Positions 1 to 64,000 of a stretch of 64,000 bases of DNA are shown here, piece after piece (positions within the stretch are counted from its first letter, which is position 1; every line of letters starts with the position of its first letter). Location of the stretch: positions 8,771 to 72,770 of the IMG/VR virus record IMGVR_UViG_3300022666_000049; one strand, 5' to 3'. Source of the DNA: a virus. The position numbers and the translations under genes are program-made. The notes below the pieces were generated by a model. It saw only the letters and a list, made by a program, of their open reading frames with translations, did no database searches and was not told the DNA's origin.

Positions 1-2473
1 CTGAGGCTGTTACACTACCAATAAATAAACTTTCGCTACTACTTAGCCATACACCGCCCTGACCATTAGCATCACCTGTACGCATGCGCCCAGTAACTGC
101 AAAATCTATACTAGTACCACCTGTACCAAGTATGTTTGCACTTCCAGATACTTGTAGCTTATTTACACCATTGTCTGTAGCTGTTCCTACAAGAAAATTG
201 CCAGTTATTCCTGTAACAATTTTAGAGCCATCCAATTGTAACGGCTTGTATTGAGAGAGATCCCGATCATAAGATACGAGATATCCTATACCTCCTGTAT
301 ACTGGAGTTCAGTTCCAACTCCTGTTGTTAGGGTTGTATTCCCTTGTGCTCTAATGCCATTGGCGACAGTTACACACCCACCTTTTTGGGTTATTCCAAT
401 TTGGAATGAACCAGGCCCCCCATCATAAAGAGAAAAACTACCATCCGAATTTCCATTAAGGGCGAATCGTGGGCTTGTACCATTCCCTATAACAAATGAA
501 GTTTGTCCATCAGTTTGAGTTATTCCAAGTTTAGCAGCAGTTGAATGTAATGCAGCAGCTCCATTAAGGCCTAAGCTAGCAAACTGTGGTGTAGCAGCAG
601 TGTGTATACTTTGAGGTAAGCTTAGTGTGACGGCACCTGTAGAAGCTGAGACGTTTACTTGGTTTGCTGTTCCCGTTAAAGATGTAACTGCTGTTGTTAG
701 ATATGTATTTGTATCTAATGTCCAAGTGTCTGCTGCTGTCTTCTTAAGAAGTCCGCTTGTCCCAGCTATTGCAGCTATTGCAGTTAGATCTGCGTCTAAG
801 GGTTGCTTATTTCCAAGTTGAGTTTGAATCGCTGATGTTACACCGTCTAAGTAACCTACCTCTGTCATCGTTACTGCAGCCGGCCAGTCTGAGTGAGATC
901 CTGTTGTATGTGCAGTTGGTGTCCTTGCATCAGATAATCTAGAATCATTTCCCTGACAGAATGTTCCTGCACCAGTACCAAAGGATCCAGTGGTAAGAAC
1001 ACCAGAGGTTGTAGTTATAATTGGCAAGCTTGCAGTAGTGCCTATTGCACCTGCATTAGTGATATTGCCATGTGTATGAGATGTAGGAGTACGGGCATCG
1101 CTTAGTCTACTATCATTTCCAACACATGCTGTTGTTCCAGTAGTGCCATAAGATACCGAAACCGTCCCTGTTGCTACACTTAATCCTGTTCCTACTCTTA
1201 AGTGCCCTGCATTTGTTGCATCTCCATATCCATAAGTAGATGCATTGACTGCATGTGAAATAGGCGCTGCATCATTTGCTATTTCTGCGTTAACAAATGC
1301 GGTAGTTGCAAGTTGGGTTGTACTTGTTCCAGTGGCCGCTGTTGGGGCAGCTGGAGTCCCTGTGAATGTAGGAGATGCTATTGGTGCTCTACTTGTATCT
1401 GTTGGATGGACATGATCAGCCCTTGCAACTGTTGTAGATGTACCTATAGCTACAGAGCCATCCATTGAAGGATTTGTAGAAGATAAGGCTGTTATAGAGT
1501 TAAATGAAGTCCCAGATACTGCTGCAGGGAATGTTGCATTCTTATTTTCATCTACACTAAATATTCTTCTTTTTGCCATAGGGTAACCACCCCATAGCTG
1601 TATGTTATATATATTTATATTTTTAGAACGATAAGAGCCATTCCACGAAGGAATAAATACAACAGAAACTTCATGGAAATGTGTTCCAAGTATACCAGTT
1701 GGATGAAATGGTATTGTGTCAAATGGTAAATATGCATGCCCTGGCCATTGGTTGATTGTTGCAGTCGATGAAGTGTGCTGTGTGTATGTCCCACTATCAT
1801 GTTTTTTGTATATGTGTATTTGTGATGCATGACCATTAGAGCTAAAATATGAATATAGTGCATTTAAATATACATAAGATGTAGCCCTAAATCTTACTCT
1901 AAAATATGCAGTTCCGTATGGAATTACTAAGTTGGAGCCGGAATCACCACCAACCAATCGTCTTTTATTTGTATCATCTACAGAATAAGTAGACCAGGTA
2001 GTCCCATCAGTTGAAGTTTCAATAAATAGATTAGCTATATCATGAAATTCTGTTTTATTATTAAACTGAGTTTCAAATAATCCCATCTCTGCTATAGAAG
2101 GGTCGCCAAGGTTTGAGCTTGGATATCCAGAACTTGTCTTAACTTTCAAATGACGCATTGATATAATACTATCTTGAAGTTCAGTTTCAGTATAGTATCT
2201 TCCATCATGAGTATGTGAATCATCTACTACTGTAGCAGTAAGTGTTCCATTCCCTAAATCTGTAAGAGTTACAGATCCAGTTAAATCACCGCCAAGTGTG
2301 ATTACAGGATCTGGTTTATTAGTTACGTTTGTCCAGTCTAGATAATAACTACCTTCTTGACCATCCAATTTATCTGCATTAAGATTTGCCACGAGCGTAT
2401 TTGAGGTTATCCCTAGTGGCGCTGTGCCACTAGGGACTCCAGTTATATCGACTGGCTTGAAAAACTTAGACAT
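1..2473 (-). CDS. Long tail fibre protein, partial (>=824 aa, runs off the left edge; absent from the ORF track)
   Basis: Manual translation from ATG at 2473 (SD GGAGGT upstream) is stop-free to base 1: MSKFFKPVDITG...NLNADKLDGQEG...DSHTHDGRYYTETE...QLWGGYPMAKRR...VARADHVHP...SPTFTGTPAAPTA...TTQLATTAFV...GNDSRLSDARTPT (x2). Thr/Gly/Ala-rich with HxH motifs typical of fibres; last gene of the baseplate/fibre cluster. Confidence 0.85.
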   Translation of the reverse strand, partial: MSKFFKPVDITGVPSGTAPLGITSNTLVANLNADKLDGQEGSYYLDWTNVTNKPDPVITLGGDLTGSVTLTDLGNGTLTATVVDDSHTHDGRYYTETELQDSIISMRHLKVKTSSGYPSSNLGDPSIAEMGLFETQFNNKTEFHDIANLFIETSTDGTTWSTYSVDDTNKRRLVGGDSGSNLVIPYGTAYFRVRFRATSYVYLNALYSYFSSNGHASQIHIYKKHDSGTYTQHTSSTATINQWPGHAYLPFDTIPFHPTGILGTHFHEVSVVFIPSWNGSYRSKNINIYNIQLWGGYPMAKRRIFSVDENKNATFPAAVSGTSFNSITALSSTNPSMDGSVAIGTSTTVARADHVHPTDTSRAPIASPTFTGTPAAPTAATGTSTTQLATTAFVNAEIANDAAPISHAVNASTYGYGDATNAGHLRVGTGLSVATGTVSVSYGTTGTTACVGNDSRLSDARTPTSHTHGNITNAGAIGTTASLPIITTTSGVLTTGSFGTGAGTFCQGNDSRLSDARTPTAHTTGSHSDWPAAVTMTEVGYLDGVTSAIQTQLGNKQPLDADLTAIAAIAGTSGLLKKTAADTWTLDTNTYLTTAVTSLTGTANQVNVSASTGAVTLSLPQSIHTAATPQFASLGLNGAAALHSTAAKLGITQTDGQTSFVIGNGTSPRFALNGNSDGSFSLYDGGPGSFQIGITQKGGCVTVANGIRAQGNTTLTTGVGTELQYTGGIGYLVSYDRDLSQYKPLQLDGSKIVTGITGNFLVGTATDNGVNKLQVSGSANILGTGGTSIDFAVTGRMRTGDANGQGGVWLSSSESLFIGSVTAS

Positions 2474-31565: not shown

Positions 31566-31602
31566 ATTTGATATAATTGTTATGCAATTTGTTAATTACT
31601 TA

Positions 31603-35543: not shown

Positions 35544-35567
35544 AATTGGTCTATTTGTTATTAACGA

Positions 35568-44380: not shown

Positions 44381-44394
44381 GTAATTACCCTTTT

Positions 44395-46434: not shown

Positions 46435-46455
46435 TATTTGTATTCCTTATATTTA

Positions 46456-48767: not shown

Positions 48768-48769
48768 TC

Positions 48770-49393
48770 TTAAACACCTACTACATCTAGCTCTTCTGAG
48801 TAGGATATGTCTATAAAATAATCTCGTATTGTAAATAGAGATGGGTTGCTTAAAAAATTTATCTTTAAGCGTATTGGCTTATAAGACATATCAAATAAAG
48901 TAGAATTTCCTAGATATGGAATATATAGTCCTGATTTTCTATTTGACCAAGAATAATTAGATAATTCATCATATCCATAGCTAAATTTTACTTCTATATC
49001 TCCGTCATTAGAGATTGGGACATAATTTGTTTTATAGCTATTTCTAAGAATTATATTTGAGGTAAATGTAAAACCCTCATATACAGACTCTAAATATAGC
49101 TTATCTTCTGTAGAAGGTACGCTTAGGTAAATATCTGTATCTTTTCTTACTACACCAGTAGCATAATTACTTACACCACTAACCTCTTTCATCAAAGAGA
49201 CAACTATGCCTTTGTAGTATTTTAAAGGATTGTCATTTCTTAGATATATAACAGACTCTAATGAGTTATAGCTACTAGTAGAATTAAAAGCAAATGGCAA
49301 TATTACTGGATTTGTAAAGTTGCCATCTTCGCTTATTTTCTGCTCTAATCTTTTATTTGTAAATGGTACAGACTCTTGGAATAGTGTTAACAT
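48770..49393 (-). CDS. Hypothetical (possibly structural) protein (207 aa)
   Basis: SD GAGGA; beta-rich appearance; follows terL. Confidence 0.45.
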   Translation of the reverse strand: MLTLFQESVPFTNKRLEQKISEDGNFTNPVILPFAFNSTSSYNSLESVIYLRNDNPLKYYKGIVVSLMKEVSGVSNYATGVVRKDTDIYLSVPSTEDKLYLESVYEGFTFTSNIILRNSYKTNYVPISNDGDIEVKFSYGYDELSNYSWSNRKSGLYIPYLGNSTLFDMSYKPIRLKINFLSNPSLFTIRDYFIDISYSEELDVVGV

Positions 49394-49402
49394 TATGTCC
49401 TC

Positions 49403-51232: not shown

Positions 51233-51698
51233 TATCCTCTAAAACCTCATTTAGTTCTGCTGTATCTTCTGGCACAGTTTCTTCATTTTTTATAACTAGT
51301 TTTTGTGAAATCCAAGTAGGGAATGTTATATTGTGTATGCCATTAGCTACACCATCTTTGTCTCCGGAATTATGATGTTCGTTACATAAGACTAAACAAT
51401 TCCTTATATCATCTACAGTAGTGATTGGAATATTTTTTAGTAACTTTCCATATCCATATGGATCAAAATCTTCACAAAATTGTTTTAACTTATCAAAATC
51501 ACATACATTTTCAAGACATCATTCCATTCCACTATGATGTACTTCTAAGTCTTCTAAAGATCCACAAACCCAACAATAGTAATGTCCGTCTTTCCTGAGT
51601 CTCGCCTTAGTCTTTCTAAACTCTTTAGACTCTTTCCTTTCTTCATGACTAGGAACTACTAGTAAATCTGTTAATGTTTTCTTTACTACATGTGTCAC
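51225..51698 (-). pseudogene. HNH endonuclease-like gene (157 codons) interrupted by in-frame TGA at codon 60 (51519-51521)
   Basis: GTG at 51698 with SD AAGGAG; translation ...HYYCWVCGSLEDLEVHHSGME*CLENVCDFDK...DDIRNCLVLCNEHH...GIHNITFPTW...; TAA 51225-51227 overlaps the terL start. Not in the ORF track. Confidence 0.75.
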
Positions 51699-52459
51699 AA
51701 CTTTCTCCTTAATGCTACTGAAATAGCTTTGGCTGCTGGTCCAAGGTTACTTGATTTCCCTGGTGTTACATTTATTGCCTTTAATATAGTCTTTGATTTA
51801 TCTATCTTTTTAAATGGTATCTTGCTTGTAGTTGTATCAATTACCTGTCTAGCTGGCTTTGTAATATTCTCTGCCCCATCTACAGCCCTCATTGCCTCTA
51901 AGTCTTTTAACCTAGACTCTACTTCAAAAGCTGGTACAATATTTTCTGGATAAAATGTTCCAAAGTTTAGTGCGTTTGACTCTTTAGTAAATACACCATC
52001 ATATCCTTTTGCTTTTAATTCATCTAGTACAGATTTATGCTCTATAACTGCCCAGTTTCCCCATTCTGCAAATTTATTTAGCTTTTCTAATTGCCTTTCT
52101 TCTGTTAGCCCTTCTAATACAGGAGCGAATCTTGTTTGGAAATCTGGCGTTTTTAACTTATTTTTAAGTATCCCAGATAATTCTTCCCTATGTGCTTCAT
52201 TTCTAAAGTCCCAAGGCTTAGAGCTTTTTATATAAGATGGCCTAACATTAGCCCCAGGACCTTCTGTGGCAAAGGTATTGGCAAACTCTGCGTTTGCTGA
52301 GCCATAGAATAGCCCCGTATGCTTACTTACGCCATAATTCTTGAAGTTTTCGGCAGTCCCATGATAAAACTTTAGAGGGTTTCCTTGTTCGTCTGGAAGG
52401 AAACCCTTTTTTAAATTATCTATAAGTTGAGATGCTAAATCAAATTTATTATTTACCAT
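51695..52459 (-). CDS. ADP-ribosyltransferase-like protein (ART-PolyVal type, 254 aa)
   Basis: GNPLKFYHGT...GLFYGS..AEFANTFA...NVRPSYIK...KGYDGVF..E...GTFYPENI. Confidence 0.65.
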   Translation of the reverse strand: MVNNKFDLASQLIDNLKKGFLPDEQGNPLKFYHGTAENFKNYGVSKHTGLFYGSANAEFANTFATEGPGANVRPSYIKSSKPWDFRNEAHREELSGILKNKLKTPDFQTRFAPVLEGLTEERQLEKLNKFAEWGNWAVIEHKSVLDELKAKGYDGVFTKESNALNFGTFYPENIVPAFEVESRLKDLEAMRAVDGAENITKPARQVIDTTTSKIPFKKIDKSKTILKAINVTPGKSSNLGPAAKAISVALRRKL

Positions 52460-52662
52460 CTTGTTTTATACTCCCAAGTAGCAGTTAGCATAACACCATC
52501 AATATTATCTGCAATATTTATTAATAGCTCTCTATATTCATAGGACGATATGTTCTGTTTTAATAATATAGGCTTAATAGATACAGACTTAGGCTCAATA
52601 TAAGTAATATAAGAACAGCTACACATTAGGAGCATATATAAGAGTAGAATAAATTTATACAT
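52453..52662 (-). CDS. Small putative lipoprotein (69 aa)
   Basis: MYKFILLLYMLLMCSC signal peptide with lipobox-like Cys. Confidence 0.4.
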   Translation of the reverse strand: MYKFILLLYMLLMCSCSYITYIEPKSVSIKPILLKQNISSYEYRELLINIADNIDGVMLTATWEYKTRW

Positions 52663-52663
52663 A

Positions 52664-53350
52664 TTATATATTCGGATTTATAGTTCTGGTAAAGTGAGTG
52701 TCAGTTTGTCCCGCATACGCAGCAGCACCCAAAGCCATAGTGGTAACCCTACTATCTGCTACTTTAGACACCATATTCGCACCTTTTAACATCCAAGGCT
52801 TGATATTTTCATTGAATTTGGCATTCCTTGTTAAGCTTCTAGCTGCTCCACCAGCAGCACCTAACGCTCCAATAGTAGCTCCAGTTAGCATTGCATTTCT
52901 GATAAAATGTGGGTCTGTTTCAGCAATATTAGGGTTTATCATATTTCCAGCCATACCCATCACTGCTCCACCAGCAGCACCAATCCCTGCGCCCATAAGA
53001 TGCTTACCCATTGAGCCCATTTGAAAATCTTTAGCTATTGTTCCAAAAATAGATTTTGTTTGATTTTTCCATCCATCTACAGCACCTATTCTTTCTCTTA
53101 GAGTATCTCTAGACCATTTTCCTGTAGCCTTATCTGCAGCAGTGCCTGTCCCTAACCTACCACCCATAGAGGCTTCTTTAAACTTTGCCGCAGTCTCATC
53201 CATAAACTTTCCTAATCCACCACCAACTCTTGCCCCTACAGTTGCTGCCTCTGCTGTTGCTGCTGACTTTATGCTTTTCCCTACTACCATGCTACCAGCA
53301 TTGTTCCCTAAAGTTTTAGCCCCAAATTTCAAAAAATCACGTAATCCCAT
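52664..53350 (-). CDS. Gly/Ala-rich hydrophobic-segment protein (228 aa), candidate internal/ejection protein
   Basis: GAGIGAAGGAVMGMAG and GATIGALGAAGGAA glycine-zipper-like segments. Confidence 0.5.
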   Translation of the reverse strand: MGLRDFLKFGAKTLGNNAGSMVVGKSIKSAATAEAATVGARVGGGLGKFMDETAAKFKEASMGGRLGTGTAADKATGKWSRDTLRERIGAVDGWKNQTKSIFGTIAKDFQMGSMGKHLMGAGIGAAGGAVMGMAGNMINPNIAETDPHFIRNAMLTGATIGALGAAGGAARSLTRNAKFNENIKPWMLKGANMVSKVADSRVTTMALGAAAYAGQTDTHFTRTINPNI

Positions 53351-53352
53351 AA

Positions 53353-54087
53353 TTATCCCCTATTATGAAAGAGTCTAGCTGTAGATACCATTTTGCTTTC
53401 ATACATATCCATAGCCTGACCTATTGTTTGATGTAAACTGGCTTCATCTCTTTGTGTGTTAAAATATCTAGTATCGTAATGCATTTTCCTTCTATTTATA
53501 TCAAACTGTGCTGCCTGATCCATCAATCCGCCAACTTTACTAAAAGCCCATGATGCCATCATTCCTGCTGCCATAGAAGCCATCATTCCAACCATTGGGC
53601 CACCCATTCCTTTAAGAGCTTTAAACTTACCAGCTTTGTTAAAAAACCCTCTAGTGGATGACTTTTTAAGGTCACTTATAGCCTCTGATGTAAGCATTTT
53701 CAGTCCATTTTTGTCTGCATACATACTCCCGCTTGGGTTGGACCAAATGTCTCTACCCTGCATGAAACCTCTGCTCTTTCTCCACACCTCTTTGCTACCT
53801 AAAGCAGCAAACTGAGCCTGCCTCATTCCTCTCATGGTCATCTGTGCGCCAAAAATCCCAGCTCCAAAAGCCCCAGCAAACTGCCCAGCCTGGACGCCTA
53901 CATTCCTAAAAGTATCAGGATTCATGCTATTAGCATCATCTAAGAAGTTTATAGCCGCATCTCTACCTATAGCTATAGGATCCCTAGCAAAAGTCCAGTT
54001 TAAATATGTATTTACACCAGATGCATCAAAAGCTTCACCTATACCAGATAATGCTTTAGCTCCTACCTGTAATCCAGATTGTAACAT
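53353..54087 (-). CDS. Gly/Ala/Met-rich hydrophobic-segment protein (244 aa), candidate internal/ejection protein
   Basis: GQFAGAFGAGIFGA and GPMVGMMASMAAGMMASWAF segments. Confidence 0.5.
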   Translation of the reverse strand: MLQSGLQVGAKALSGIGEAFDASGVNTYLNWTFARDPIAIGRDAAINFLDDANSMNPDTFRNVGVQAGQFAGAFGAGIFGAQMTMRGMRQAQFAALGSKEVWRKSRGFMQGRDIWSNPSGSMYADKNGLKMLTSEAISDLKKSSTRGFFNKAGKFKALKGMGGPMVGMMASMAAGMMASWAFSKVGGLMDQAAQFDINRRKMHYDTRYFNTQRDEASLHQTIGQAMDMYESKMVSTARLFHNRG

Positions 54088-54088
54088 A

Positions 54089-54271
54089 TTACTCTCCTAG
54101 CATTTCCTTTAGAGTACATTTTATGTCTAAATTAGACAAAGCTATATTGTTATACATATTCTCAGCATATAAATGATATGGAACATCATTTATAAAATAC
54201 ATTTCAACATCCTTATACCTTTTGTCTATTGAAGAAAATAAACTTTCTACAGACCAATTCTTTGGTGGCAT
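54089..54271 (-). CDS. Hypothetical protein (60 aa)
   Basis: SD TAGGAGA upstream. Confidence 0.45.
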   Translation of the reverse strand: MPPKNWSVESLFSSIDKRYKDVEMYFINDVPYHLYAENMYNNIALSNLDIKCTLKEMLGE

Positions 54272-54284
54272 TATATCTCCTAGT

Positions 54285-54311
54285 AAAAAGGCTGAGTGTA
54301 AGCTCAGCCTT
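54285..54311 (-). terminator. Rho-independent terminator after the metallophosphoesterase gene
   Basis: AAGGCTGAG-TGTAAG-CTCAGCCTT with a T-run on the minus strand (A-run 54285-54289). Confidence 0.7.
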
Positions 54312-54361
54312 ATATTGTGCTACATGTGTTAATAAGCATCAGTTATACAAATAAAGAATCT

Positions 54362-55297
54362 CTATATAAATTCAGCCTTTAACCTATCTATAGAGAACTG
54401 CTCTATATCAAATCTACCCTCTTTACAGAAATGTAAAAGAGAGACACATCTAACATTAGCATGAGGAGTATCATCAGCATACCCACCAGGAGGATCCCCT
54501 TCAAAGAAACAACCTGCATTATATACTTGTATCAATTCATCATCACCATGTCTCTGACAATTAAACTCTCCTGTAAAATGAGTATGAAAGAATACAAGAG
54601 ACTTGGATGTAAGATCAGAAGCCTTTTGAGTAGCAAACTTACCAGATATAGGTTGGCCAGCAGCATTTAAAGGAACATGTGTAAACAAAGTGCCATATAT
54701 TTCTCTAAACTTTTTATAAGGGACAACGTCAAACCCTCTTTCTTTTAACTTCAAGTCTTCTACTATATCCATATGCCCAGAAAGCGCAGGATTAGCCTCT
54801 ACATACCTTTCTACTCTGAACTCATGGTTTCCTATTAGATAAACTAAAAGAGGCTTGTAATCCCTAATCTCGTCCTTATAAGACAATAAAATATCTAAAG
54901 CTTTGTTACATGTATCAATTTCTAACTTATATCTTCTTCCTTCAACAGACAACTTGTTATTTCTATCAAAGAAATTTAGAGAAAGCATATCAGCAAAATC
55001 TCCACCAAATAGAATTACATCAGGCCTCTTATCTTTTATTAACTTTGCTAAATGGGTAAATCTAGAAAGGTCTTGATCATTTGTAACATGAGCATCAGGT
55101 ATAACTAATACTCTGAATATCTTACTCTTTTGCTTTACATGAACTAAAGCAGGCCTGTCTTTTAGATGAATATTCTTCCTTTGTTTACGTATAGATTCTC
55201 TAGTCCTCTTAGGTATAAGAGAGCATAACTCATCTAGTGTCTTAAACTTATTAAAAACTAATACATCAAACTCTTCTTTTGTCCACAATTCACTCAC
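54362..55297 (-). CDS. Calcineurin-like metallophosphoesterase with N-terminal HTH/Myb-like segment (311 aa)
   Basis: VIPDAHV, GGDFAD, GNHE, THVP, FHTH motifs; N-terminal WTKEEFDVL...IPKRTRESIRK. Confidence 0.85.
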   Translation of the reverse strand: MSELWTKEEFDVLVFNKFKTLDELCSLIPKRTRESIRKQRKNIHLKDRPALVHVKQKSKIFRVLVIPDAHVTNDQDLSRFTHLAKLIKDKRPDVILFGGDFADMLSLNFFDRNNKLSVEGRRYKLEIDTCNKALDILLSYKDEIRDYKPLLVYLIGNHEFRVERYVEANPALSGHMDIVEDLKLKERGFDVVPYKKFREIYGTLFTHVPLNAAGQPISGKFATQKASDLTSKSLVFFHTHFTGEFNCQRHGDDELIQVYNAGCFFEGDPPGGYADDTPHANVRCVSLLHFCKEGRFDIEQFSIDRLKAEFI

Positions 55298-56118
55298 TAC
55301 ATATCTCCTAGTCCACCAAGTGGGTTGTCTAATTCAGTATGTACATCTTCAACATTTAAATCTTGTTTCTTTAACTCTTTCATCTTAGCCTTCATACTAG
55401 AAAGAAGTTGTGCAGGCCCAGCTTTGACCTCTTTCAAAGCAGCCTGCTTCTTATACTTCTCTTTCCTAGTAGCAGTAAAAGATTCTAGTATCTGCATCTT
55501 ATTCTTGAATATCTGCATCTTTATAGACAATGCATGAGATATCTCTTCTTTAGTTACAACCCTACCATCCTGATCTACACCAACTACAGATTCCATTCTA
55601 AGATCTTTATGATAATTAGAGAGTATAGCATTACACCTATACTCTATAAGTTCATACTCTACTAACTGATTTATAAGAACCATCTCAGGATAGTTATTTA
55701 TATCTATATCTAAAGATTCTAAATACATATTCATAGCCTGAGTAAGAACATAGTTCTCATGCAAACATTCCATACCTTCAGGACATTTATCAGCTACATA
55801 TAAAGCACATCTTCCTTTATATAAACATTCTGACTTGGTACATATAACAACTAAATTGGTAGAAGAACCAGTTTCAATATCTTTAAAAGACTTAGCAATA
55901 GATTTAAGTTCAAAAGAAGTAAGAGGTATAGAATTATACTGATTCATTCTAAGAGCTAAAACAGATCTAACTCTATCTAAACCAGCCTCCTGTTCTTGCA
56001 ACTGAGTTATAACATCACCCAGTTGATAAGTATCTATTACCTCTACATCTTTGAATTTATCATTGATTTGTTTCTTCGGCTTATTAGCCTCATCAACAAC
56101 AGCAGGAAAATCATCCAT
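55297..56118 (-). CDS. Cys-cluster protein (273 aa), terminase small subunit candidate
   Basis: ICTKSECLYKGRCAL...KCPEGMECLHE; long helical C-terminal part; near the start of the packaging operon. Confidence 0.4.
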   Translation of the reverse strand: MDDFPAVVDEANKPKKQINDKFKDVEVIDTYQLGDVITQLQEQEAGLDRVRSVLALRMNQYNSIPLTSFELKSIAKSFKDIETGSSTNLVVICTKSECLYKGRCALYVADKCPEGMECLHENYVLTQAMNMYLESLDIDINNYPEMVLINQLVEYELIEYRCNAILSNYHKDLRMESVVGVDQDGRVVTKEEISHALSIKMQIFKNKMQILESFTATRKEKYKKQAALKEVKAGPAQLLSSMKAKMKELKKQDLNVEDVHTELDNPLGGLGDM

Positions 56119-56285
56119 TACTTGTTCTCTTTCTCTAAGTTATCCAATGCATATCTAATAAGATATAATACAGAAGGACCAAACTTATATACTTTAAGTT
56201 TTCCAGCTACCTGCATAACTTCATCGTATAACTCCATACTCATATCCATTGTTACCTTTTTATTTTTACCATTCTTCTCTGACAT
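56118..56285 (-). CDS. Small ribbon-helix-helix-like protein (55 aa; not in ORF track)
   Basis: MSEKNGKNKKVTMDMSMELYDEVMQVAGKLKVYKFGPSVLYLIRYALDNLEKENK; SD TAGGAGA; TAATG coupling to the next gene; first solid gene after the promoter. Confidence 0.55.
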   Translation of the reverse strand: MSEKNGKNKKVTMDMSMELYDEVMQVAGKLKVYKFGPSVLYLIRYALDNLEKENK

Positions 56286-56426
56286 ATAAATCTCCTATAT
56301 ATTCTTTTTGCCTTTTGTTTGAAATAAAATCTTTTTTGTTGTATGTGCTTTCCTGCACAACAATTGTTCTAAGTACTTTATCAATTGTTCCATATCTTGA
56401 ACAACTATACCTGAACAACTAAAAGG

Positions 56427-56455
56427 ATTTTATCATATTTTAAATCCATTGTCAA
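56427..56455 (-). promoter_or_regulatory. Near-consensus sigma70/sigmaA promoter facing the morphogenesis block
   Basis: Minus strand TTGACA (56455-56450), 17-nt spacer, TAAAAT (56432-56427), with extended -10 TG. Confidence 0.75.
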
Positions 56456-56799
56456 CAAGAAAATATTATTTTTTCATTTTAATTCATTTTTATTTTGTAT
56501 ATGATAATATCTACGATGTTATTAACGCCTGTTGTACAGGTGTGGCCTAGGTCATGAATGACCTATAACGGTCTCTTCTAATAATAAGAGAATATTCCTA
56601 TATGTATTTGAAATTATTATAAATATTTTGAAAAATCTGAGTTTGAGTTGGGTTTGGTTTGGGGATAGGCTGGGGTAAGAAAATATTACTAATATAGGTT
56701 GGATTTGGTGGATATTGGTTGAAGGGCTAATTAGAGGTTTGGAGGGGAGAAATCGCCAAGATCCGACCCCACCACCAAAAATAACAAGGAGGAAGTACA

Positions 56800-56883
56800 A
56801 TGGGAAAGCTCAAGTATGATGTGGCTATCGAGAAGTATGCAGCATTATCTGACACTCTTCTTGCTATTAAGAAAAGGCTGTAG
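56800..56883 (+). CDS. First early ORF (27 aa), in frame through a single TAG with the next ORF
   Basis: SD AAGGAGG; MGKLKYDVAIEKYAALSDTLLAIKKRL*. Confidence 0.45.
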   Translation: MGKLKYDVAIEKYAALSDTLLAIKKRL

Positions 56884-56889
56884 TACTTC

Positions 56890-57081
56890 ATGGAGAAGCG
56901 CCTGCACTACTACTACGCTCTTAACAACGAGCGTTCTGTAGAGACAGGTATTGTGATCGGTATTGTTATTGATACCGAGTATGATCTTATACGCATCGGT
57001 GCTCTTATAGACCGGGCTGTGTATGAGACTGCCTTCCGCAAGATAGAAGAGGTAGAGGCTAAGCTTATTAAGCTCCTGTAG
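56890..57081 (+). CDS. Hypothetical early protein (63 aa)
   Basis: ORF track; weak SD; same frame as the 56800 ORF. Confidence 0.45.
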   Translation: MEKRLHYYYALNNERSVETGIVIGIVIDTEYDLIRIGALIDRAVYETAFRKIEEVEAKLIKLL

Positions 57082-57137
57082 TACAACACTCTAACAATGG
57101 GGGCTGCGCACCCTACACGCAGAGAAAGAGGTACAAT

Positions 57138-57272
57138 ATGGTAGCTGTTATCGTTGGTGTAGTAGCGTTGGTAGTTGGTTATGTTGCAGGTATCAAAGTA
57201 CAGGCAGCAAGGGATATAGGCGCTGTTGATGCTGCTATTCAGGCGGCATATGACAAGGCTATTGGGGGTTAG
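57138..57272 (+). CDS. Small single-TM protein (44 aa)
   Basis: SD AGAGGT; MVAVIVGVVALVVGYVAGIKVQ... Confidence 0.55.
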   Translation: MVAVIVGVVALVVGYVAGIKVQAARDIGAVDAAIQAAYDKAIGG

Positions 57273-57396
57273 TAATACAGTGGACTAGGCCACTATAAAT
57301 AGACACTAAGCCTAGTGCGTCTCTCATGCTCATCTGCATGAGGGGGCTGTGTAAGACCTGACCCTGTATAGGCAGGCATCAGATAGGAGGTGTAGT

Positions 57397-57633
57397 ATGA
57401 AGGTAGTGTTCTTCGCAGTGGCTGCATGTGTAGAGGATGCGCAGAAGGATACCCATCCTATAGAGGCCGTGGCATGCGAGAAGGTAAGCGATGGTATGGA
57501 GTACATGCTTAACAAGCTCCCTGCAGGGTACATGGTAGCATGGCACGGTGATAGTGAGGGTCACAAGAGTGATTCTATTCCTTACTGGTACATCAAGTAC
57601 GAGGGTAGGACCATTCTTGTACAGGGGCTGTAG
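57397..57633 (+). CDS. Hypothetical early protein (78 aa)
   Basis: SD AGGAGGT. Confidence 0.6.
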   Translation: MKVVFFAVAACVEDAQKDTHPIEAVACEKVSDGMEYMLNKLPAGYMVAWHGDSEGHKSDSIPYWYIKYEGRTILVQGL

Positions 57634-57684
57634 TACAACAATCAACGCTGTCCTATCGGCTATACGGGGAGAAAGAGGTGTATC

Positions 57685-57840
57685 ATGTTAAACAGGATTC
57701 TTGCAACTCTGGTAGTAGTGGCGATGTGGACGTTGTTGATCGGCGTTGGACCGTCTGTGGTGGCAAAGGGAATGGCTTCTGTCTATAAATGGCAGGAGCA
57801 AAGGAATGTGCTTGTTAAGGCCCTCGATGCCAGTAAGTAG
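57685..57840 (+). CDS. Small membrane/secreted protein (51 aa)
   Basis: SD AGAGGTG; MLNRILATLVVVAMWTLLIGVG... Confidence 0.55.
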   Translation: MLNRILATLVVVAMWTLLIGVGPSVVAKGMASVYKWQEQRNVLVKALDASK

Positions 57841-57870
57841 TATCCTCCAACCAAAGAAAGGAGACATATC

Positions 57871-58701
57871 ATGATGGCGAAAAAAGAAAGCAGGCTTGTA
57901 TTCGTGGAAGGCAAGAGGTGGCTTGTTAACGGGATCATTCCCTCTGACTATGGGAAGGAGGAGATTGGGCAGGCCATCAAGGACAACATAGTGCGTATCG
58001 TAGCAGTGAAGGCTCTTGAGGGGCCTATGGATGAGCGGGTGTGGATGGACCTCACACCCAGCAGGTTGGCAAATGAGGAGAACTACCGGCTGAATAACCT
58101 CGTCAAGATGAAGAACATCTGGCACATCAACATGCCGGATAGCGAGATCATCAACTGGGTGCAGCACGAGAAGAGCACCCGCTTCCCTCAGTCGGCAACA
58201 ATCAAGGTCGGTGATGAGATTGCCGATGTTGTGGAAGTGGATGGTAAGTACTACATCCATGCTGAAAAAACCTGCCAGGTCTGCGGCATTAAGATCGCAG
58301 GTACGAGGCAGGTATACAAGAAGGGTGATGGATTCACCTATCCGCAGATGTTTCAACCGGATCCTCAGTTCGCTGGAGCAGTCCCGGCCAAATTCAAGTC
58401 CAAGTTCTGGGTCTGCAAGGACCATGCTCCCGTGGACGTAACGGAGGAAACCAAGGGCGAATACAAGGCTCCTGGTGTCACCATTCCTGCACCCAAGAAG
58501 GTCCACAAGGCTGTTGTTACACCTCATGAGTACGATGATCTCAAACATGAGATCAAAGACCTCAAAGGGGCTCTTAGGGCTCTTAAAAAGAACTCTTTCA
58601 CTATCGCAGAGCTTGAGGCTAAGTTCTGGGATATGACTGGAGAGGCTGACTCTGCTGACCTTGGTGCTATTGCCAAGTTTATCAAGGCCCTCAAGAAGTA
58701 G
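57871..58701 (+). CDS. Hypothetical early protein with CxxC...CxxH Zn-ribbon-like motif (276 aa)
   Basis: SD AAGGAG; KTCQVCG...WVCKDH; C-terminal helical region. Confidence 0.6.
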   Translation: MMAKKESRLVFVEGKRWLVNGIIPSDYGKEEIGQAIKDNIVRIVAVKALEGPMDERVWMDLTPSRLANEENYRLNNLVKMKNIWHINMPDSEIINWVQHEKSTRFPQSATIKVGDEIADVVEVDGKYYIHAEKTCQVCGIKIAGTRQVYKKGDGFTYPQMFQPDPQFAGAVPAKFKSKFWVCKDHAPVDVTEETKGEYKAPGVTIPAPKKVHKAVVTPHEYDDLKHEIKDLKGALRALKKNSFTIAELEAKFWDMTGEADSADLGAIAKFIKALKK

Positions 58702-58764
58702 TCGTCACTTTTCTCATTCCCGCTAGCAGACCGGTTATAATAGTCTGCTTAAAGGAGAATAGTC

Positions 58765-59691
58765 ATGGAAGAATTCAAGAGGACAGTATTAACTGCGGCA
58801 AATCTGATTGGTATGCTGGATGAGTATCTCTTTCGGGGGGAAGGGTACATCAAGGCCAGCATCAAGAGAGCGGTAAAGGAAGTGAAGCTGCGTGGTCACA
58901 AGGTATTGGGCGTGTACATAGCTGGTGGAGCAGTAGCTAATGTACTCATTCGTAAGTGCAAATCCCACAACACCATGCCCATCAATGACATCGATGTATA
59001 TGTATTCATTGACGGAGAGAAGTATCGGAAGAACAGGGCATCCTCAGTGCTTAGGACTCACTCGTTTGGCAAGTTTGAGTCTGTTGTTGAAGGTGAAGAT
59101 GAGTATGGTATGAATATCCGCCATCACATCTTTAAGGACAAGATGTATAGGGTAGAGAAGTCTTACTCGTATAACAAGATCTTCAATATTATCCTTTGTT
59201 CTACATGGGAGAATCATATCCCTACAGCAGAGGAGCTGGCTAAAGATTTTGACATTAATGTATGCCAAGCAGCCATTGATCTCAGAACAAAAGAAGTGTT
59301 TGTCCATAACGATATCCTGATGGCAATGCAGCATTTCTTTGTCAAGGTCAATATACTGAGATGGCACTCTCCGGTACAATCTCTCCTTAGGGCTGCAAAG
59401 AAAGAGCTGCAGTTGTATGGCAGAACTCACTATGCTCGGGCCAATGCGCTTGAGACATTCGCTCAGTGGCTGTTGTATGAAGAGACTTCTCCTCAGGTAT
59501 TTGGGAAGAAGTTTGTAGAGCTGTACTATGAGATCCCTGAGCTCCACAAGTACTTCAGGGTTGAGAGGTGCGAGGAGACTCGCGCATTTAAGGCAGTTTG
59601 GGATGAGGGCTTTGCAGGATTCCAGACTCACCAGATGGCAATCAAATACTTGAGGGGAGAGAAAAGAAGGGAGGTAGCACATGAGTTTTAG
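58765..59691 (+). CDS. Nucleotidyltransferase (CCA/poly(A)-polymerase head-like, 308 aa)
   Basis: VYIAGGAVAN, NDIDVYV, DFDINVCQAA motifs of pol-beta-superfamily NTases. Confidence 0.7.
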   Translation: MEEFKRTVLTAANLIGMLDEYLFRGEGYIKASIKRAVKEVKLRGHKVLGVYIAGGAVANVLIRKCKSHNTMPINDIDVYVFIDGEKYRKNRASSVLRTHSFGKFESVVEGEDEYGMNIRHHIFKDKMYRVEKSYSYNKIFNIILCSTWENHIPTAEELAKDFDINVCQAAIDLRTKEVFVHNDILMAMQHFFVKVNILRWHSPVQSLLRAAKKELQLYGRTHYARANALETFAQWLLYEETSPQVFGKKFVELYYEIPELHKYFRVERCEETRAFKAVWDEGFAGFQTHQMAIKYLRGEKRREVAHEF

Positions 59692-59961
59692 CATCGAGGA
59701 GCTCTCTGCAATGGGAAGTATTGGGTTGGGGCAGTTATTGGTATAGATGAATATACCATAACCTTATTGTTTGAACCTGTCATACCGCCTGAAGGTGAGG
59801 GGTACGACCCTATCCGCTGCAATCCTAAAACGATGGTTGTCAACAGACATCTCTTGCCAGCTTTTAAAGCAATGGGGTGGAGAGACGAACTGGTCGTAGA
59901 AGTAGAGGATAAGGGTGAGGTCGACACGGGCTATTGCCCGGAAGATGATATCCCGTTTTAG
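59681..59961 (+). pseudogene. Apparently frameshifted early gene (~92 aa if repaired)
   Basis: ATG at 59681 with SD GGAGGT stops after 21 codons; removing one CT from GCTCTCTGC (59701-59709) gives MSFSIEELCNGKYWVGAVIG...EDDIPF* ending at 59961. Confidence 0.5.
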
Positions 59962-60121
59962 TATTCTCTTCGGCATCACAAGACTCTACATCTTGTGGTG
60001 CTCATAGGGTGTACTAACCAACAAGCCTATATCTAATAGTGTAATGCTCCTAAACAGAGTTGCTATTAGATCAATTGGCATCTATTAACCTCAACCAAAT
60101 AAATAGGAAAAGGAGTCTATC

Positions 60122-60568
60122 ATGACAACGAACAACAGCATCAACATGGTACAGTATCTGGAAGAGAGGATCAAAGCTGCAAGGGCTGCAGTAGTTGCAG
60201 CAGAAGCAAAAGTACGTGAAGAGGAGGCCAAACGCAAAAAGATCGATGAGCTGCACCAGGCCATCGATGAGAAACAGGTCGAGATGAAAGAGGTGGCAAT
60301 GAGGAAGAATACCCTCATCGCAGCAGTCAACGAACTCAAAGAAGCAGCAAAACACGTCAAAGGATTTGAGAAAGAGATCTCCGAGTTCAACAAGGACATC
60401 CTCTCTGCAACTGCTCTCATCTCTGCACTGAACAACGACATCAGGATGATCGAGAATGAAATCCACAAGGTAGCTTTCCCTGCATCAAACAAGGTCGACA
60501 ACGTGGTACTATCAAGAACGAAAGAGAAGGCCGGCTTCTGCAACAGAGCCAGGATCGTCAACAGCTAG
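60122..60568 (+). CDS. Coiled-coil early protein (148 aa)
   Basis: SD AAGGAG; heptad-rich, E/K/A-rich. Confidence 0.65.
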   Translation: MTTNNSINMVQYLEERIKAARAAVVAAEAKVREEEAKRKKIDELHQAIDEKQVEMKEVAMRKNTLIAAVNELKEAAKHVKGFEKEISEFNKDILSATALISALNNDIRMIENEIHKVAFPASNKVDNVVLSRTKEKAGFCNRARIVNS

Positions 60569-60576
60569 GAGGTTAC

Positions 60577-60666
60577 ATGGAACGAGTAGAGTATCAGGAT
60601 CCCTGCATGGGATGCGAACGTAGTACATGTTTTGGATGCGAATACCAACACAAGGAGGATAACTAA
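60577..60666 (+). CDS. Cys-rich micro-protein (29 aa)
   Basis: SD AGGAGGT; MERVEYQDPCMGCERSTCFGCEYQHKEDN*; TAATG coupling to the next gene. Confidence 0.55.
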   Translation: MERVEYQDPCMGCERSTCFGCEYQHKEDN

Positions 60667-60875
60667 TGGCTAGGACAATTGAGATGGTAAGAACAAAGAA
60701 AGGAGTGTGGGTTATGAAAGATAAGAAACCTGCATTGCTGGACCGTATTACTTTAAAGATCATTGAGAAGATGTTTAACTTTCCCAAGTTTGCAGTATTT
60801 TGCTGCATCCTCACTTATGATGAGATTATGTCCGACCAGTACCTCATCAACGAACTCTTGAGCTTGATAAACTAG
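60666..60875 (+). CDS. Hypothetical early protein (69 aa)
   Basis: SD AAGGAGG. Confidence 0.55.
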   Translation: MARTIEMVRTKKGVWVMKDKKPALLDRITLKIIEKMFNFPKFAVFCCILTYDEIMSDQYLINELLSLIN

Positions 60876-60889
60876 AAAGGAGAACAACA

Positions 60890-61237
60890 ATGATAACAAT
60901 CATCGGCACTGTAGTTAAAAGTACAATAACCCAAGAGAAAAAGCCTCACCACCCTCACAAACGTAGGCGCACTTTCATCTCAATCTTTCTTGATAACGGG
61001 AACGTAGAATTGCCTATTCAGTGCTCGGCTATCAAAGGAACGAAGCTTTATGCGACATGTGCAACATTAAACACGGGAGATATAGTTACTATACAGGCTA
61101 AAGCTATGTCTGGATATGCATTTATGCAAAGGAATATACATTTCGATGATATAGAAGAGAAGCCTAGGGTAATAGTAACTGTAACACCTGGGTGGAAAAT
61201 TATAGACATTAAAAGGAGGAACAAACATGAAAGATAG
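60890..61237 (+). CDS. Possible OB-fold (SSB-like) protein (115 aa)
   Basis: MITIIGTV...FISIFLD...IQCSA...LNTGDIVTIQAK pattern resembles SSB beta strands. Confidence 0.45.
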   Translation: MITIIGTVVKSTITQEKKPHHPHKRRRTFISIFLDNGNVELPIQCSAIKGTKLYATCATLNTGDIVTIQAKAMSGYAFMQRNIHFDDIEEKPRVIVTVTPGWKIIDIKRRNKHER

Positions 61238-61445
61238 AATAAAGCAGGAGTTGAATTTTAACTACAAGACGTATAAAGCTATAGAAGGAGAAGGTATATT
61301 CATATTCCTTGTACAGTTTTGTGTATGCAACTTCTGTACTATCAAGGAGGTGATTAGTCCAACTGAATGGATCATAGAGATAGAGAGGATTGATTACCGG
61401 GTGTGGTATGACGAAGAGTTCAATATTATAGAGAAGGAGGTATAG
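61227..61445 (+). CDS. Hypothetical early protein (72 aa)
   Basis: SD AAGGAGG. Confidence 0.5.
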   Translation: MKDRIKQELNFNYKTYKAIEGEGIFIFLVQFCVCNFCTIKEVISPTEWIIEIERIDYRVWYDEEFNIIEKEV

Positions 61446-61447
61446 CA

Positions 61448-61621
61448 ATGGGAAAACTTATAGCTGGAGTTGTCCTCATGATAGGCGGTGCAATTGTGAG
61501 TGAGATTATGGTATATCCTATATCTTTTATAGGAACTATAGTCATTTTGGCAGGAGCAGCTCTGTTCGGTGCTGCTATAATGAAAGAAAAAGGAGGAAAG
61601 AAAGATGAGGAAAGACGTTAG
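61448..61621 (+). CDS. Small two-TM membrane protein (57 aa)
   Basis: SD AAGGAGGT; MGKLIAGVVLMIGGAIV...IGTIVILAGAALFGAAIM; basic/acidic tail. Confidence 0.6.
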   Translation: MGKLIAGVVLMIGGAIVSEIMVYPISFIGTIVILAGAALFGAAIMKEKGGKKDEERR

Positions 61622-62039
61622 TATAAGACTACAGAATGGGGATACTCATCATCTCTTTGGCTTCTCTAAGTTTAGCATTGATAACAATAATACAATCATA
61701 GAAGTAGATGGGACTACACAAACTTTTCCGTCTACATCTATCGATCAAATATTTATTGTTGTGAGGGAAAAAGTAATGTCAGTTAAATTTGATGTTACTT
61801 ATGGGGTTGTAACTATTACATATCCCAACAAGATGATTGTAACAGTGAGAGAGTGCGCAGTTACTAATTACGTTGGAGTAGATGTATATTTCGAAGGTAA
61901 GAATATCAACAGAGAGGTATATAAAAGAATGTACGGATATCAGGCAGAACTGCCATTTGGTTTTGCCAATGTAGACGCAGAGAAACTTACTGGTATTTTG
62001 AATTTCGTAAGCAACCAAACCACAGGAAAGGAGAAATAA
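61605..62039 (+). CDS. Hypothetical early protein (144 aa)
   Basis: SD AGGAGG. Confidence 0.6.
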   Translation: MRKDVSIRLQNGDTHHLFGFSKFSIDNNNTIIEVDGTTQTFPSTSIDQIFIVVREKVMSVKFDVTYGVVTITYPNKMIVTVRECAVTNYVGVDVYFEGKNINREVYKRMYGYQAELPFGFANVDAEKLTGILNFVSNQTTGKEK

Positions 62040-62040
62040 A

Positions 62041-64000
62041 ATGACCGTTAAAGAATTGTATGCAAGAGCGAAAGAGCTGAGAGTAATCAGGTATTCCAAG
62101 ATGAATAAGAAGGAGCTTGAGTCTGCCATAGCTAAGGCTGAGGCTGATATCAAGCTTAAAGAGATGATTGTACAGCAGGAAGGGGCTGGTAAAGAACTCT
62201 CAGATAAAGAGTTTGATGAAATTATCAGCCACATTGACAAGAGGAAGGAGGAGGAGTTCAAAGAGTATACCGAAGGAAAAGCCCATCATGGAGATGGCAA
62301 AAAGAAAGGAGAGGATATGAGCAAGTTCACATTTATCAAAGGAAAAAGGGTTGTTGCCAGTGATACTGAGATGTATCCTGGTAAACACGCCATCCTCCAG
62401 CAGAAAGAGGATGGAAGCCATGTGGTTGTTTTCAGAGAGGGAGATGTTCCTATACTTATGCAGGCAACCGTGAGGAAGGCAGCATTGGAGTCTGGGAAAT
62501 TTACACCCATCAGGATCCAGTACTCTGATGTTGATCTCAGGATCACCGCCATGAATCTCACTATTGACCGTCTCCACAAGGAGGGGATCGAGAAGTACGG
62601 GAAGCCTCTGTACCCTGTATTCTGGCACACTGATACCAGCAATGCTAAGGGGCTGGTAGGATTCAAGGAGGATTTCGACGAGTTGTTTGGTGTCGATATA
62701 TTTGCAGGTAAAGATCCGGTCAGGTTGATCGAATACGACACTCCTGTCTCTGTACAGATAACCAATAGCACCAAGGAGTATCTCAACTTCTTGGTCCTTG
62801 ATGTAGTAGGTCCTAATGGCGAGGCATATTGGGATGGACAAACCTGGATGAATGTTGTATTCAAATATGAATCGTATCTGTCTGAAAAGGACAAGGAGAA
62901 AGGTAAAAAGACTTACCATATCCATGAGGATACCGTACAGCTGAGGGCATTTATCCCCGCATTCCTGAAGGGACAAGGGGCAATGGCTCCTCAGTTTGTT
63001 CATGATGCTTGCCTGTCTTATGGCATCAAGAACTATGAGGACTACGATGGTGTTATCTCTTTTGACACCATGAAAACCAATCCTCTTGGGCTCAAGCATG
63101 GGGACAGCTTTAAGATCAAGGCAACAGATCTTAAGATTGTCAATATGCTTACCGAAAACCCTGTATCTTCTACTGGTGTACAGATGGTCACTCATAAACC
63201 TTCTGCCGTACTTAATTTCTGCGAAGAGCTGAACATTGCAGAAAATGGTAGGGTATTCCGTGGAATCATTGATGGAGACATTGAGGAGGCATATAAAATG
63301 CTTTCTGCTCCTAAAATGAGGACGATGGAGGATGCAGATATTGCTCACGCAATGTTCCTTGCAATGGCAGTTCCTGATGGTACCGGTTCATACAGGGTAA
63401 TGCGTTGCACCTCTATCTATAACAAGTACATCGCCCGAGCAGTAAAGTTTTATCAGAACGATGTGCTTAAGATTGAGACTGCTGCATTGGCAGCATACGC
63501 CATAGCATGCCCTATTATCCTTCCTGATGAGAACGGGAATATGGTCGATGCACTCTCTATGTTCGAAAGACTTCACTATAAAGAAACTGGAGAGATGATT
63601 AACTATACCGTATTCCCTGATGATGATTCATTTATCAGAAAGGCAATGGCTAAAAGGTATCTCAACTCTCACAGGCATCCTGTTGTTGGTCCTGGCTCTG
63701 TTCAGAGAGATACCAATCTTCCCAAGGAGTATGTAGAAAAACTCCAGGCAATGGGATTCAAGTCTATCTACATGAAAGAGGTAGATGGAAAAGAATATGC
63801 AGTATGCCCTGTAAAGCATGGGTATATGATCTCCTATGACAAGGCACAAGCTCAGAATGGTGACTTTGATGGAGATATGCAGTATTACATTCCATCTGAT
63901 ACCGCTGACTTCGGTGTCATCCGTATGCCTGAAGCTAAACCTGAAGAGGCATCTGGTGAAAAGCTTGAGTATACTTATGAGAACTATTATAAGTTCTTGA
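62041..64000 (+). CDS. Single-subunit two-barrel RNA polymerase-like protein (YonO/QDE-1 type), partial (>=653 aa), with Rho-N-like N-terminus; absent from the ORF track
   Basis: Stop-free from ATG 62041 to the window end; VQLRAFIPAFLKGQG (62938-62973), NSHRHPVVGPGS (RHP 63673-63681), AQNGDFDGDM (63856-63876); N-terminal MTVKELYARAKELRVIRYSKMNKKELESAI. Confidence 0.8.
   Translation, partial: MTVKELYARAKELRVIRYSKMNKKELESAIAKAEADIKLKEMIVQQEGAGKELSDKEFDEIISHIDKRKEEEFKEYTEGKAHHGDGKKKGEDMSKFTFIKGKRVVASDTEMYPGKHAILQQKEDGSHVVVFREGDVPILMQATVRKAALESGKFTPIRIQYSDVDLRITAMNLTIDRLHKEGIEKYGKPLYPVFWHTDTSNAKGLVGFKEDFDELFGVDIFAGKDPVRLIEYDTPVSVQITNSTKEYLNFLVLDVVGPNGEAYWDGQTWMNVVFKYESYLSEKDKEKGKKTYHIHEDTVQLRAFIPAFLKGQGAMAPQFVHDACLSYGIKNYEDYDGVISFDTMKTNPLGLKHGDSFKIKATDLKIVNMLTENPVSSTGVQMVTHKPSAVLNFCEELNIAENGRVFRGIIDGDIEEAYKMLSAPKMRTMEDADIAHAMFLAMAVPDGTGSYRVMRCTSIYNKYIARAVKFYQNDVLKIETAALAAYAIACPIILPDENGNMVDALSMFERLHYKETGEMINYTVFPDDDSFIRKAMAKRYLNSHRHPVVGPGSVQRDTNLPKEYVEKLQAMGFKSIYMKEVDGKEYAVCPVKHGYMISYDKAQAQNGDFDGDMQYYIPSDTADFGVIRMPEAKPEEASGEKLEYTYENYYKFL

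Follow-up and report, generated by a model that had tools for sequence, protein, structure and literature searches.

To our knowledge, transcription of phage genes by single-chain relatives of cellular RNA polymerase (RNAP) has been shown only for YonO (2017), for gp66 of the crAss-like phages (2021) and for the P23-45 pair (2024). In crAss-like phages it is early genes that the single-chain enzyme of this clade transcribes. In SPbeta an enzyme of the same clade transcribes late genes (PMC5467207), and in Thermus phage P23-45 a two-polymerase relay is established, made up of a virion RNAP fused to the tape measure and of gp64 (PMC10770324). YonO-like enzymes have also been noted in two jumbo phages (PMC7824862). 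Here we describe a gene that runs off the end of a 64,000-nucleotide stretch of viral DNA (the window; G000:C1:8771-72770, IMG/VR record IMGVR_UViG_3300022666_000049), which is part of an 83,543-bp viral record rated 40% complete by CheckV. On the strength of a structure model we consider it likely that this gene encodes an active single-chain two-barrel RNAP of the QDE-1/YonO/phage gp64 clade, which would be made after infection and would transcribe later phage genes; for brevity we refer to it as the polymerase gene.

The original prediction, made from the letters of the window, had picked out an open reading frame (ORF) that begins at position 62041 of the plus strand and has no stop within the window. 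The frame does stay open up to the window end (62041..63999), and when the downstream sequence was retrieved from that record the stop codon was found 1,088 bases past this end, giving a product of 1,015 amino acids (aa) (Table 1). The TAA stop of the preceding small gene of 144 codons (62037-62039) falls inside the spacer between the Shine-Dalgarno sequence and the ATG, so that the polymerase gene is tightly coupled to this neighbour and belongs to a closely packed operon on the plus strand.

With phmmer, 1.84 billion cluster representatives were searched exhaustively and 27 clusters of related proteins were returned, almost all of them with a length of about 1,000 residues, and a word-indexed search added further close relatives at 52%, 52% and 43% identity; the ten family members that were looked up are all metagenomic and without names. 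Conservation was read from an alignment of 26 sequences with 18-51% identity to the query. Invariant throughout are D265, G266, Q300, R302, K310, K345, S376, G379, Q381 and P547, as well as D608, D610, G611, D612, G668, I704, D815 and N1001, while R545 is kept in 20 of the 26. The three motifs from which a polymerase had been predicted all fall within this invariant core. The first, given as QLR...LKG, is QLRAFIPAFLKG at residues 300-311 (62938-62973), with Q300, R302 and K310 unchanged in every sequence; RHP occupies residues 545-547 (63673-63681) and NGDFDGD residues 606-612. The predicted spacing of 61 codons between the latter two is also reproduced, as P547 to D608 is 61 residues (63 if counted from R545). 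Since these residues are invariant across such divergent relatives, the motifs are not chance occurrences and belong to the conserved core of a real family. Two distant family members, one of them a protein of 1,360 aa (P0022, L012:2895-6977), carry a circularly permuted YpsA domain (SLOG, nucleotide-binding) fused to the polymerase.

Annotation libraries gave little. Sequence searches of PHROGs and the PDB with the protein found no match, and a Pfam search at expect values (E) up to 10 recognised only a Rho_N domain. With tblastn neither the whole protein nor its core (residues 225-720) matched any of 50,697 GenBank phage records, even at E 10. At E up to 10, neither phmmer nor the family profile found anything but noise among PDB sequences, with no sequence homology to gp64 or gp62 detected; among this noise we count a profile match to phiKZ gp55 (E 1.4), though the R-x-P...DFDGD stretch was aligned in it. 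As judged from sequence, the protein therefore belongs to a separate family of what appears to be a known enzyme class, one unrecognised by the libraries searched (Pfam, PHROGs and PDB sequences).

The predicted structure is more informative. AlphaFold2, run with the family alignment, gives a model with a predicted local distance difference test score (pLDDT) of 85 and a predicted template modelling score (pTM) of 0.78, in which the only disordered parts are a linker at residues 43-94 and a loop at residues 864-894. The anticipated double-psi beta-barrel (DPBB) fold is borne out by the model, in which two barrels are confidently predicted and which two independent aligners match, across almost the entire core, to solved single-chain two-barrel RNAPs. 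Foldseek against the PDB returns QDE-1, RDR2, P23-45 gp64 (8f72), phi14:2 gp66 (6vr4) and P74-26 gp62 (8f5m) at probability 1.00, with E of 1.2e-9 for QDE-1 over about 1,000 aligned columns, 6.6e-6 for gp64 and 1e-5 for gp66. VIA-align, which was run independently of Foldseek over 48,161 representative chains, gives P74-26 gp62 (Z 16.1, 489/592 residues, root-mean-square deviation 5.5), QDE-1 (Z 14.3, 658 residues), plant RDR2 (Z 13.6, 630 residues), P23-45 gp96 (Z 9.7, 332 residues), phi14:2 gp66 (Z 8.0, 606 residues) and, at Z 7-8 over residues 418-802 of the model, the largest subunits (Rpb1/beta') of cellular, poxvirus and African swine fever virus RNAPs. The same class of matches is obtained in fold searches of BFVD and AlphaFold DB. 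Among the solved structures found, Thermus phage P74-26 gp62 and P23-45 gp64 together with QDE-1 are the closest to the model.

As modelled, the chain has a new architecture in which a Rho_N-type domain and a linker precede a core of about 920 residues whose catalytic barrel bears an insertion (Table 1; the borders of the first barrel are approximate, being taken from the secondary structure of the model). The Rho_N match (E 1.8e-5 and 25.0 bits, just above the cut-off of 24.9; pLDDT 84-89 in the model) is found in 5 of 26 family members, and this domain is a putative small nucleic-acid-binding appendage that would be tethered to the core by the charged disordered linker of about 50 residues. 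A second in-frame ATG at 62317 (M93), which is preceded at 5 nt by an AAGGAG of its own (62306-62319, +), lies exactly where the linker ends, and a start at this codon could yield a core-only isoform without the Rho_N domain; M93 is unconserved among homologues, so that conservation lends such a separate isoform no support. The N-terminal beta-rich domain of the core lies within the ranges aligned to QDE-1 (105..1009) and gp62 (140..1006). The helical connector between the barrels may be assigned as a clamp element by comparison with P23-45 gp64 and QDE-1 (PMC10770324), and in the model the catalytic barrel is followed by a 38-residue bridge-type helix (646-683) that contains the invariant G668, and then by a helical C-terminal region.

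Within the first, beta-like barrel the invariant set comprises D265-G266, Q300-x-R302, K310, K345 and S376-x-x-G379-x-Q381. In QDE-1, D709 of DPBB1 helps to hold cation B and Q736 touches the 2'-OH of the product -2 nucleotide, while R738, K743 and K767 contact the product -1/-2 nucleotides and the phosphates of nucleoside triphosphates (NTPs) (PMC9508822). The likening of QLR...LKG to the QDE-1-type lysine motif is apt, as the pattern is that of these product- and NTP-contacting residues (PMC9508822); from this pattern only, with the same order and similar spacing, D265, Q300, R302, K310 and K345 would be equivalent to D709, Q736, R738, K743 and K767.

The second, beta'-like barrel (481..619) aligns in VIA-align to the designed double-psi barrel 7dww (Z 6.3, 83/86 residues), and residues 473..632 and 477..631 of the model align to the beta'-like subunits of phiKZ and AR9 (Z 6.4-6.8). 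When the family is compared by hhalign with residues 351-850 of E. coli beta', GRxPxVGxGxxQ pairs with NRAPTLHRLGIQ and DxDGD with NADFDGD, a local alignment that is suggestive only (E 0.0038, probability 8.8%); compared by hhalign with E. coli beta, the family yielded nothing. The long spacing between R-x-P and DFDGD had been taken as the sign of an insertion, correctly as it turns out. The shortest family members have a P-to-D distance of 35-37 and others one of 53-65, whereas the subclade of the query has 61 and a single sequence 96; the insertion is thus lineage-specific. In the hhalign alignment beta' has a gap of about 28 residues where the insertion sits. The model thus presents the traits of the two-barrel superfamily, namely a DxDGD barrel with R-x-P, the basic and acidic residues of a beta-like barrel and the overall fold.

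Table 1. Features of the polymerase gene, its predicted product and its surroundings (positions refer to the window unless prefixed L002).
Feature	Position	Strand	Remarks
Complete polymerase ORF	L002:812-3859	+	1,015 aa; parent record
Polymerase gene, first 653 of 1,015 codons	62041..64000	+	
Codons 654-1015 and stop, outside the window	L002:2772-3859	+	
Shine-Dalgarno AAGGAG	62028..62033	+	7 nt 5' of the ATG; strong ribosome-binding site, read from sequence
Rho_N-type helical domain, residues 1-35	62041..62145	+	Pfam PF07498
Charged disordered linker, residues 43-94	62167..62322	+	pLDDT <50
N-terminal beta-rich core domain, residues 95-235	62323..62745	+	strands/helices at pLDDT 80-95
First barrel, beta-like (DPBB-B or DPBB1), residues 236-381	62746..63183	+	inside the QDE-1- and gp62-aligned ranges
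Q300-L-R302...K310 signature	62938..62970	+	invariant in all 26 sequences
Helical connector between barrels, residues 382-477	63184..63471	+	helices at pLDDT 85-95
Second barrel, beta'-like (DPBB-A or DPBB2), with catalytic loop, residues 478-620	63472..63900	+	
R545-H-P547-VVGPGSV-Q555	63673..63705	+	counterpart of beta' N-R-A-P-TLHRLGI-Q
Insertion in second barrel, residues ~560-590	63718..63810	+	helix 562-570 and beta-hairpin 577-589 (model)
N-G-D608-F-D610-G611-D612, predicted metal-binding aspartate triad	63856..63876	+	D608, D610, G611, D612 invariant in 26/26
1,746-aa tail-module ORF	16769-22009	-	R-Y-P, then NADTDGD 37 residues later
Three giant ORFs of the structural arm		-	2,483, 1,746 and 1,992 aa
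Tail sheath	32286-34808	-	
Major head protein	39493-40689	-	
Portal	44395-46434	-	
Large terminase	49403-51232	-	
Near-consensus sigma-70-type promoter, TTGACA-17-TAAAAT	56455-56427	-	extended TG; 11/12 matches; heads the late structural block

The protein had been described as a YonO-like single-chain phage RNAP. What stands of this description is a single-chain two-barrel polymerase of the QDE-1-like clade (PMC10770324); membership of the YonO sequence family does not. YonO was taken from the SPbeta record, and its family comprises 3,572 matches at E 1e-5, many of them with PF05183. By hhalign the comparison is not significant either with YonO alone (E 0.21) or with a 16-sequence YonO profile (E 0.055, probability 1%); the non-significant profile alignment is colinear over 312 columns, but YonO has two candidate counterparts of QxR...K, at 150-155 and 266-272. 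PF05183 matches neither the query at E up to 10 nor any of the 26 members at E up to 0.01, and a YonO entry was returned by neither PDB structure search (Foldseek or VIA-align). YonO of SPbeta (PMC5467207) resembles the protein described here as a single-chain two-barrel phage RNAP of similar size (839 aa) with R-S-P...DNDGD and invariant Q-I-R-x-K-K / R...K-G motifs. It differs in having numerous relatives that are often PF05183-positive, whereas the present family has about 27 clusters, none named, and in being located beside the late genes of a temperate phage, which it transcribes.

The best structural match is offered by P23-45 gp64 and P74-26 gp62 (8F72, 8F5M; PMC10770324), which are likewise single chains with two barrels; gp64, moreover, belongs to the early genes of a phage in which a tail-module polymerase is encoded too. 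Compared with these enzymes, ours has about 400 residues more, with the Rho_N domain, the linker, a larger N-terminal domain and the catalytic-barrel insertion of about 25 residues, and it belongs to a contractile-tailed phage of about 200 kb rather than to a long-tailed siphovirus. The virion polymerase of P23-45 is fused to the tape measure, whereas the candidate here is a separate ORF of 1,746 aa beside the putative tape-measure gene. QDE-1 and RDR2 (PF05183) share the fold over about 650 residues, and likewise have the D...QxR...K...K set in their first barrel and a DxDGD loop in their second; unlike them, the protein here is the product of a phage gene, has no PF05183 match and is without the N- and C-terminal extensions of QDE-1. 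The crAss-like enzyme phi14:2 gp66 (6VR4) falls in the same clade by fold, but it is a packaged protein of 2,180 aa encoded in the structural block, whereas ours is half that size and encoded in a non-structural arm. The multisubunit non-virion RNAPs of phiKZ and AR9, finally, are a parallel in that these jumbo phages have two phage-encoded polymerases, and their beta'-like barrel aligns, but they consist of four or five beta/beta' fragments closer to cellular RNAP rather than of one chain.

The setting of the gene bears on when the protein is made. In the window the structural genes, tail fibres included, form an arm on the minus strand. At a divergent junction at about 56.1-56.9 kb this arm meets an arm on the plus strand whose small genes match nothing in the databases, and the polymerase gene lies about 5 kb (4-6 kb) into the latter. 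The relative at 52% identity is encoded in a record of 206,638 bp that CheckV rates 100% complete (G001), about 4 kb into a plus-strand arm that spans 14-126 kb and is flanked by minus-strand arms; a locus search with eight family sequences found only this 206.6-kb relative. On the contig of a relative at 23% identity (P0012) the order is terminase ... C14 peptidase, junction, about nine small genes and polymerase. The layout of large terminase (TerL)...(C14 peptidase), divergent junction, small genes and polymerase is kept in both. In the P0012 contig a 322-aa gene directly after the polymerase (L011:13052-14020, +) has a match to Pfam RNA_pol_A_CTD and might encode a DNA-binding partner; the two genes that follow the polymerase here (134 and 119 aa) have no Pfam match. 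Of the genes near the polymerase just one has a solid Pfam match: located in the early arm (L002:11264-12694, +), it encodes 476 aa with DUF2828 and DUF7788 as well as a von Willebrand A domain (E 1.6e-44). Short metatranscriptome contigs of at least 99% identity, from two activated-sludge RNA libraries, fall on late and early genes alike (window 44001-64000), and four of them are inside or just before the polymerase gene, including 62394-62575, 62701-62851 and 63009-63159; the source from which the phage was assembled resembles a biofilm metagenome. As these contigs show no strand, level or timing, and as carry-over of DNA is possible, we do not count them as evidence of expression.

The labels "non-virion" and "early region" that the gene had been given are drawn solely from gene position and synteny, that is, from its conserved place among non-structural, first-in-line genes. 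From this place near the head of the diverging plus-strand arm, we infer that the polymerase would be synthesised after infection and not packaged. It might instead be packaged in the virion and hence be a second virion enzyme, since the sequence holds nothing that excludes packaging and jumbo phages do package proteins encoded outside the structural block. However, the gene is situated in the small non-structural arm, on the strand opposite all head and tail genes and at a conserved position, and the tail module already has a giant R-x-P/NADTDGD protein, and we regard packaging as unlikely.

This giant protein, the 1,746-aa ORF of the structural arm, is the candidate for a further polymerase. 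The gap of 37 between its R-Y-P and NADTDGD motifs is the canonical beta'-barrel spacing, and both motifs are invariant in the four known homologues. In G001 a homologue at 29% identity lies inside the structural arm. By hhalign the right stretch of E. coli beta' is aligned, at an E of only 0.093, and an AlphaFold2 model of residues 700-1700 from a 4-sequence alignment is unusable (pLDDT 47, pTM 0.30). When the polymerase family is compared with this ORF by hhalign only the DxDGD loop is shared (E 0.34), and since nothing is shared beyond this loop there is no evidence that the two candidates are recent duplicates. PF00623 (beta'), PF00940 (T7-type) and PF04542 (sigma-70) have no match in the record of the window or in G001, and PF00562 (beta) has none in the window's own record, the only one tried; the negative for T7-type enzymes says little, as the PF00940 control matched nothing anywhere. 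Judging by the motifs of the tail-module protein, the lineage probably also carries a virion polymerase and hence a virion and non-virion pair.

A sequence element shared by many gene starts is a candidate promoter on which the polymerase might act. In G001 the 10-mer GTTATTAACA occurs in 19 copies against about 1.1 expected, and with one mismatch allowed 25 sites lie 0-56 nt (mostly 15-35) upstream of gene starts in gene orientation; upstream regions, taken in gene orientation, account for 2.4% of the sequence but hold 17 of the 67 one-mismatch matches (binomial p 4e-13). In the plus arm of G001 the element is found only from 33.9 kb onward, so that roughly the first 20 kb, which include the polymerase gene, are free of it, and it is also present on the late minus arm. 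In the window GTTAWTAACA is situated before late genes or at the junction at 8554-8563, 31590-31599, 35556-35565 and 56517-56526, all on the minus strand, although in the window alone the signal for GTWAWTAACA is weak (4 against 1.1 expected, a number reached by 6 of 100 shuffles; upstream placement p 0.005). The 9-bp core GTTAWTAAC is palindromic. The element is too near the start codons to be a -35 element and could be a compact phage promoter, an operator of a dimeric regulator or a 5'-untranslated-region element; that the polymerase reads it is a tentative suggestion that we think rather doubtful. The sigma-70-type promoter of Table 1 lies about 60 nt downstream from the GTTAATAACA site at the junction, which makes involvement of host RNAP plausible, as for the late genes of P23-45 (PMC10770324). 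When k-mers were counted in plus-strand intergenic regions, over both the window and its downstream extension, in search of an early-promoter motif, ribosome-binding sites were all that emerged. GC-rich hairpins are seen by eye in early-arm upstream regions of both genomes. One such hairpin, GGGGAG-N12-CTCCCC without a U-tract, is located directly 3' of the polymerase stop beyond the window (L002:3860-3923), and comparable ones occur in several early intergenic regions, such as 57284-57342 and 58725-58749 of the window.

We therefore return to the proposal that the gene encodes a transcriptase made after infection. In such an enzyme the D608-x-D610-G-D612 loop of the beta'-like barrel would bind the catalytic Mg2+ ions, while D265, Q300, R302, K310 and K345 of the beta-like barrel would hold the 3' end of the RNA and the NTP phosphates. 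By comparison with every characterised phage member of the class, DNA would be copied into RNA. The polymerase would then take over the later phage genes from another polymerase that starts the programme, which may be either the giant DxDGD protein of the tail module or the host enzyme. The demonstrated part of this explanation is the fold as predicted, the domain order and the residue invariance. Several points weigh against it. There is no significant sequence link to any characterised polymerase, so that the assignment rests on predicted structure and motifs. The near-consensus sigma-70 promoter at the late block means that host RNAP may do part of the job assigned here to the polymerase. 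That this is one of two polymerases rests on the motif in the tail-module protein, whose fold model is unusable. Finally, the best Foldseek matches, QDE-1 and RDR2, are RNA-dependent, so that a preference for DNA templates is no more than probable.

From this last point follows a different account, in which a two-barrel polymerase acts mainly on RNA templates, or on both, as does QDE-1, and might make double-stranded or antisense RNA instead of phage transcripts. Besides the top Foldseek matches, those in AlphaFold DB are mostly named RNA-dependent RNA polymerase, and the Q-x-R signature is typical of enzymes of the RNA interference type according to the QDE-1 paper (PMC9508822). On the other hand, YonO, phi14:2 gp66 and P23-45 gp64 and gp96, all of them characterised phage members, are DNA-dependent (PMC5467207, PMC10770324); the top solved match by Z-score, gp62, is also a DNA-dependent phage enzyme, and a conserved place heading the early arm of a double-stranded DNA phage suits a transcriptase. 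We find a preference for RNA templates quite improbable.

A function in phage DNA replication, with the protein making primers or other short RNAs instead of mRNA, is very improbable. Two-barrel enzymes encoded by plasmids and mobile elements have been proposed to have roles other than transcription, but the polymerase gene is not adjacent to replication genes, and G001 encodes its own DnaG/Toprim-type ORF of 817 aa (Toprim_2, E 3e-9, above cut-off), which weakens the case for a primase role. That the protein is a catalytically dead relic with a structural or regulatory role is scarcely credible, as all catalytic and substrate-binding residues are invariant at 18-51% identity to the query and no point in its support was found.

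What is new about the polymerase gene, beyond the architecture of its product, is its fixed position in an uncultured lineage of contractile-tailed phages of about 200 kb. The same single-chain solution would thus exist without annotation in giant contractile-tailed phages of a separate lineage, which come from biofilm and sludge. As a tentative and rather speculative extension, the polymerase and the DxDGD protein of the tail module might together make this lineage largely independent of host RNAP, with sigma-less middle and late starts at GTTAWTAACA and with the Rho_N domain helping to bind the template. The compact, well-modelled core of about 920 residues would lend itself to testing promoter recognition by minimal two-barrel polymerases, and the family supplies both a candidate promoter motif for such tests and an annotation marker for this phage lineage.

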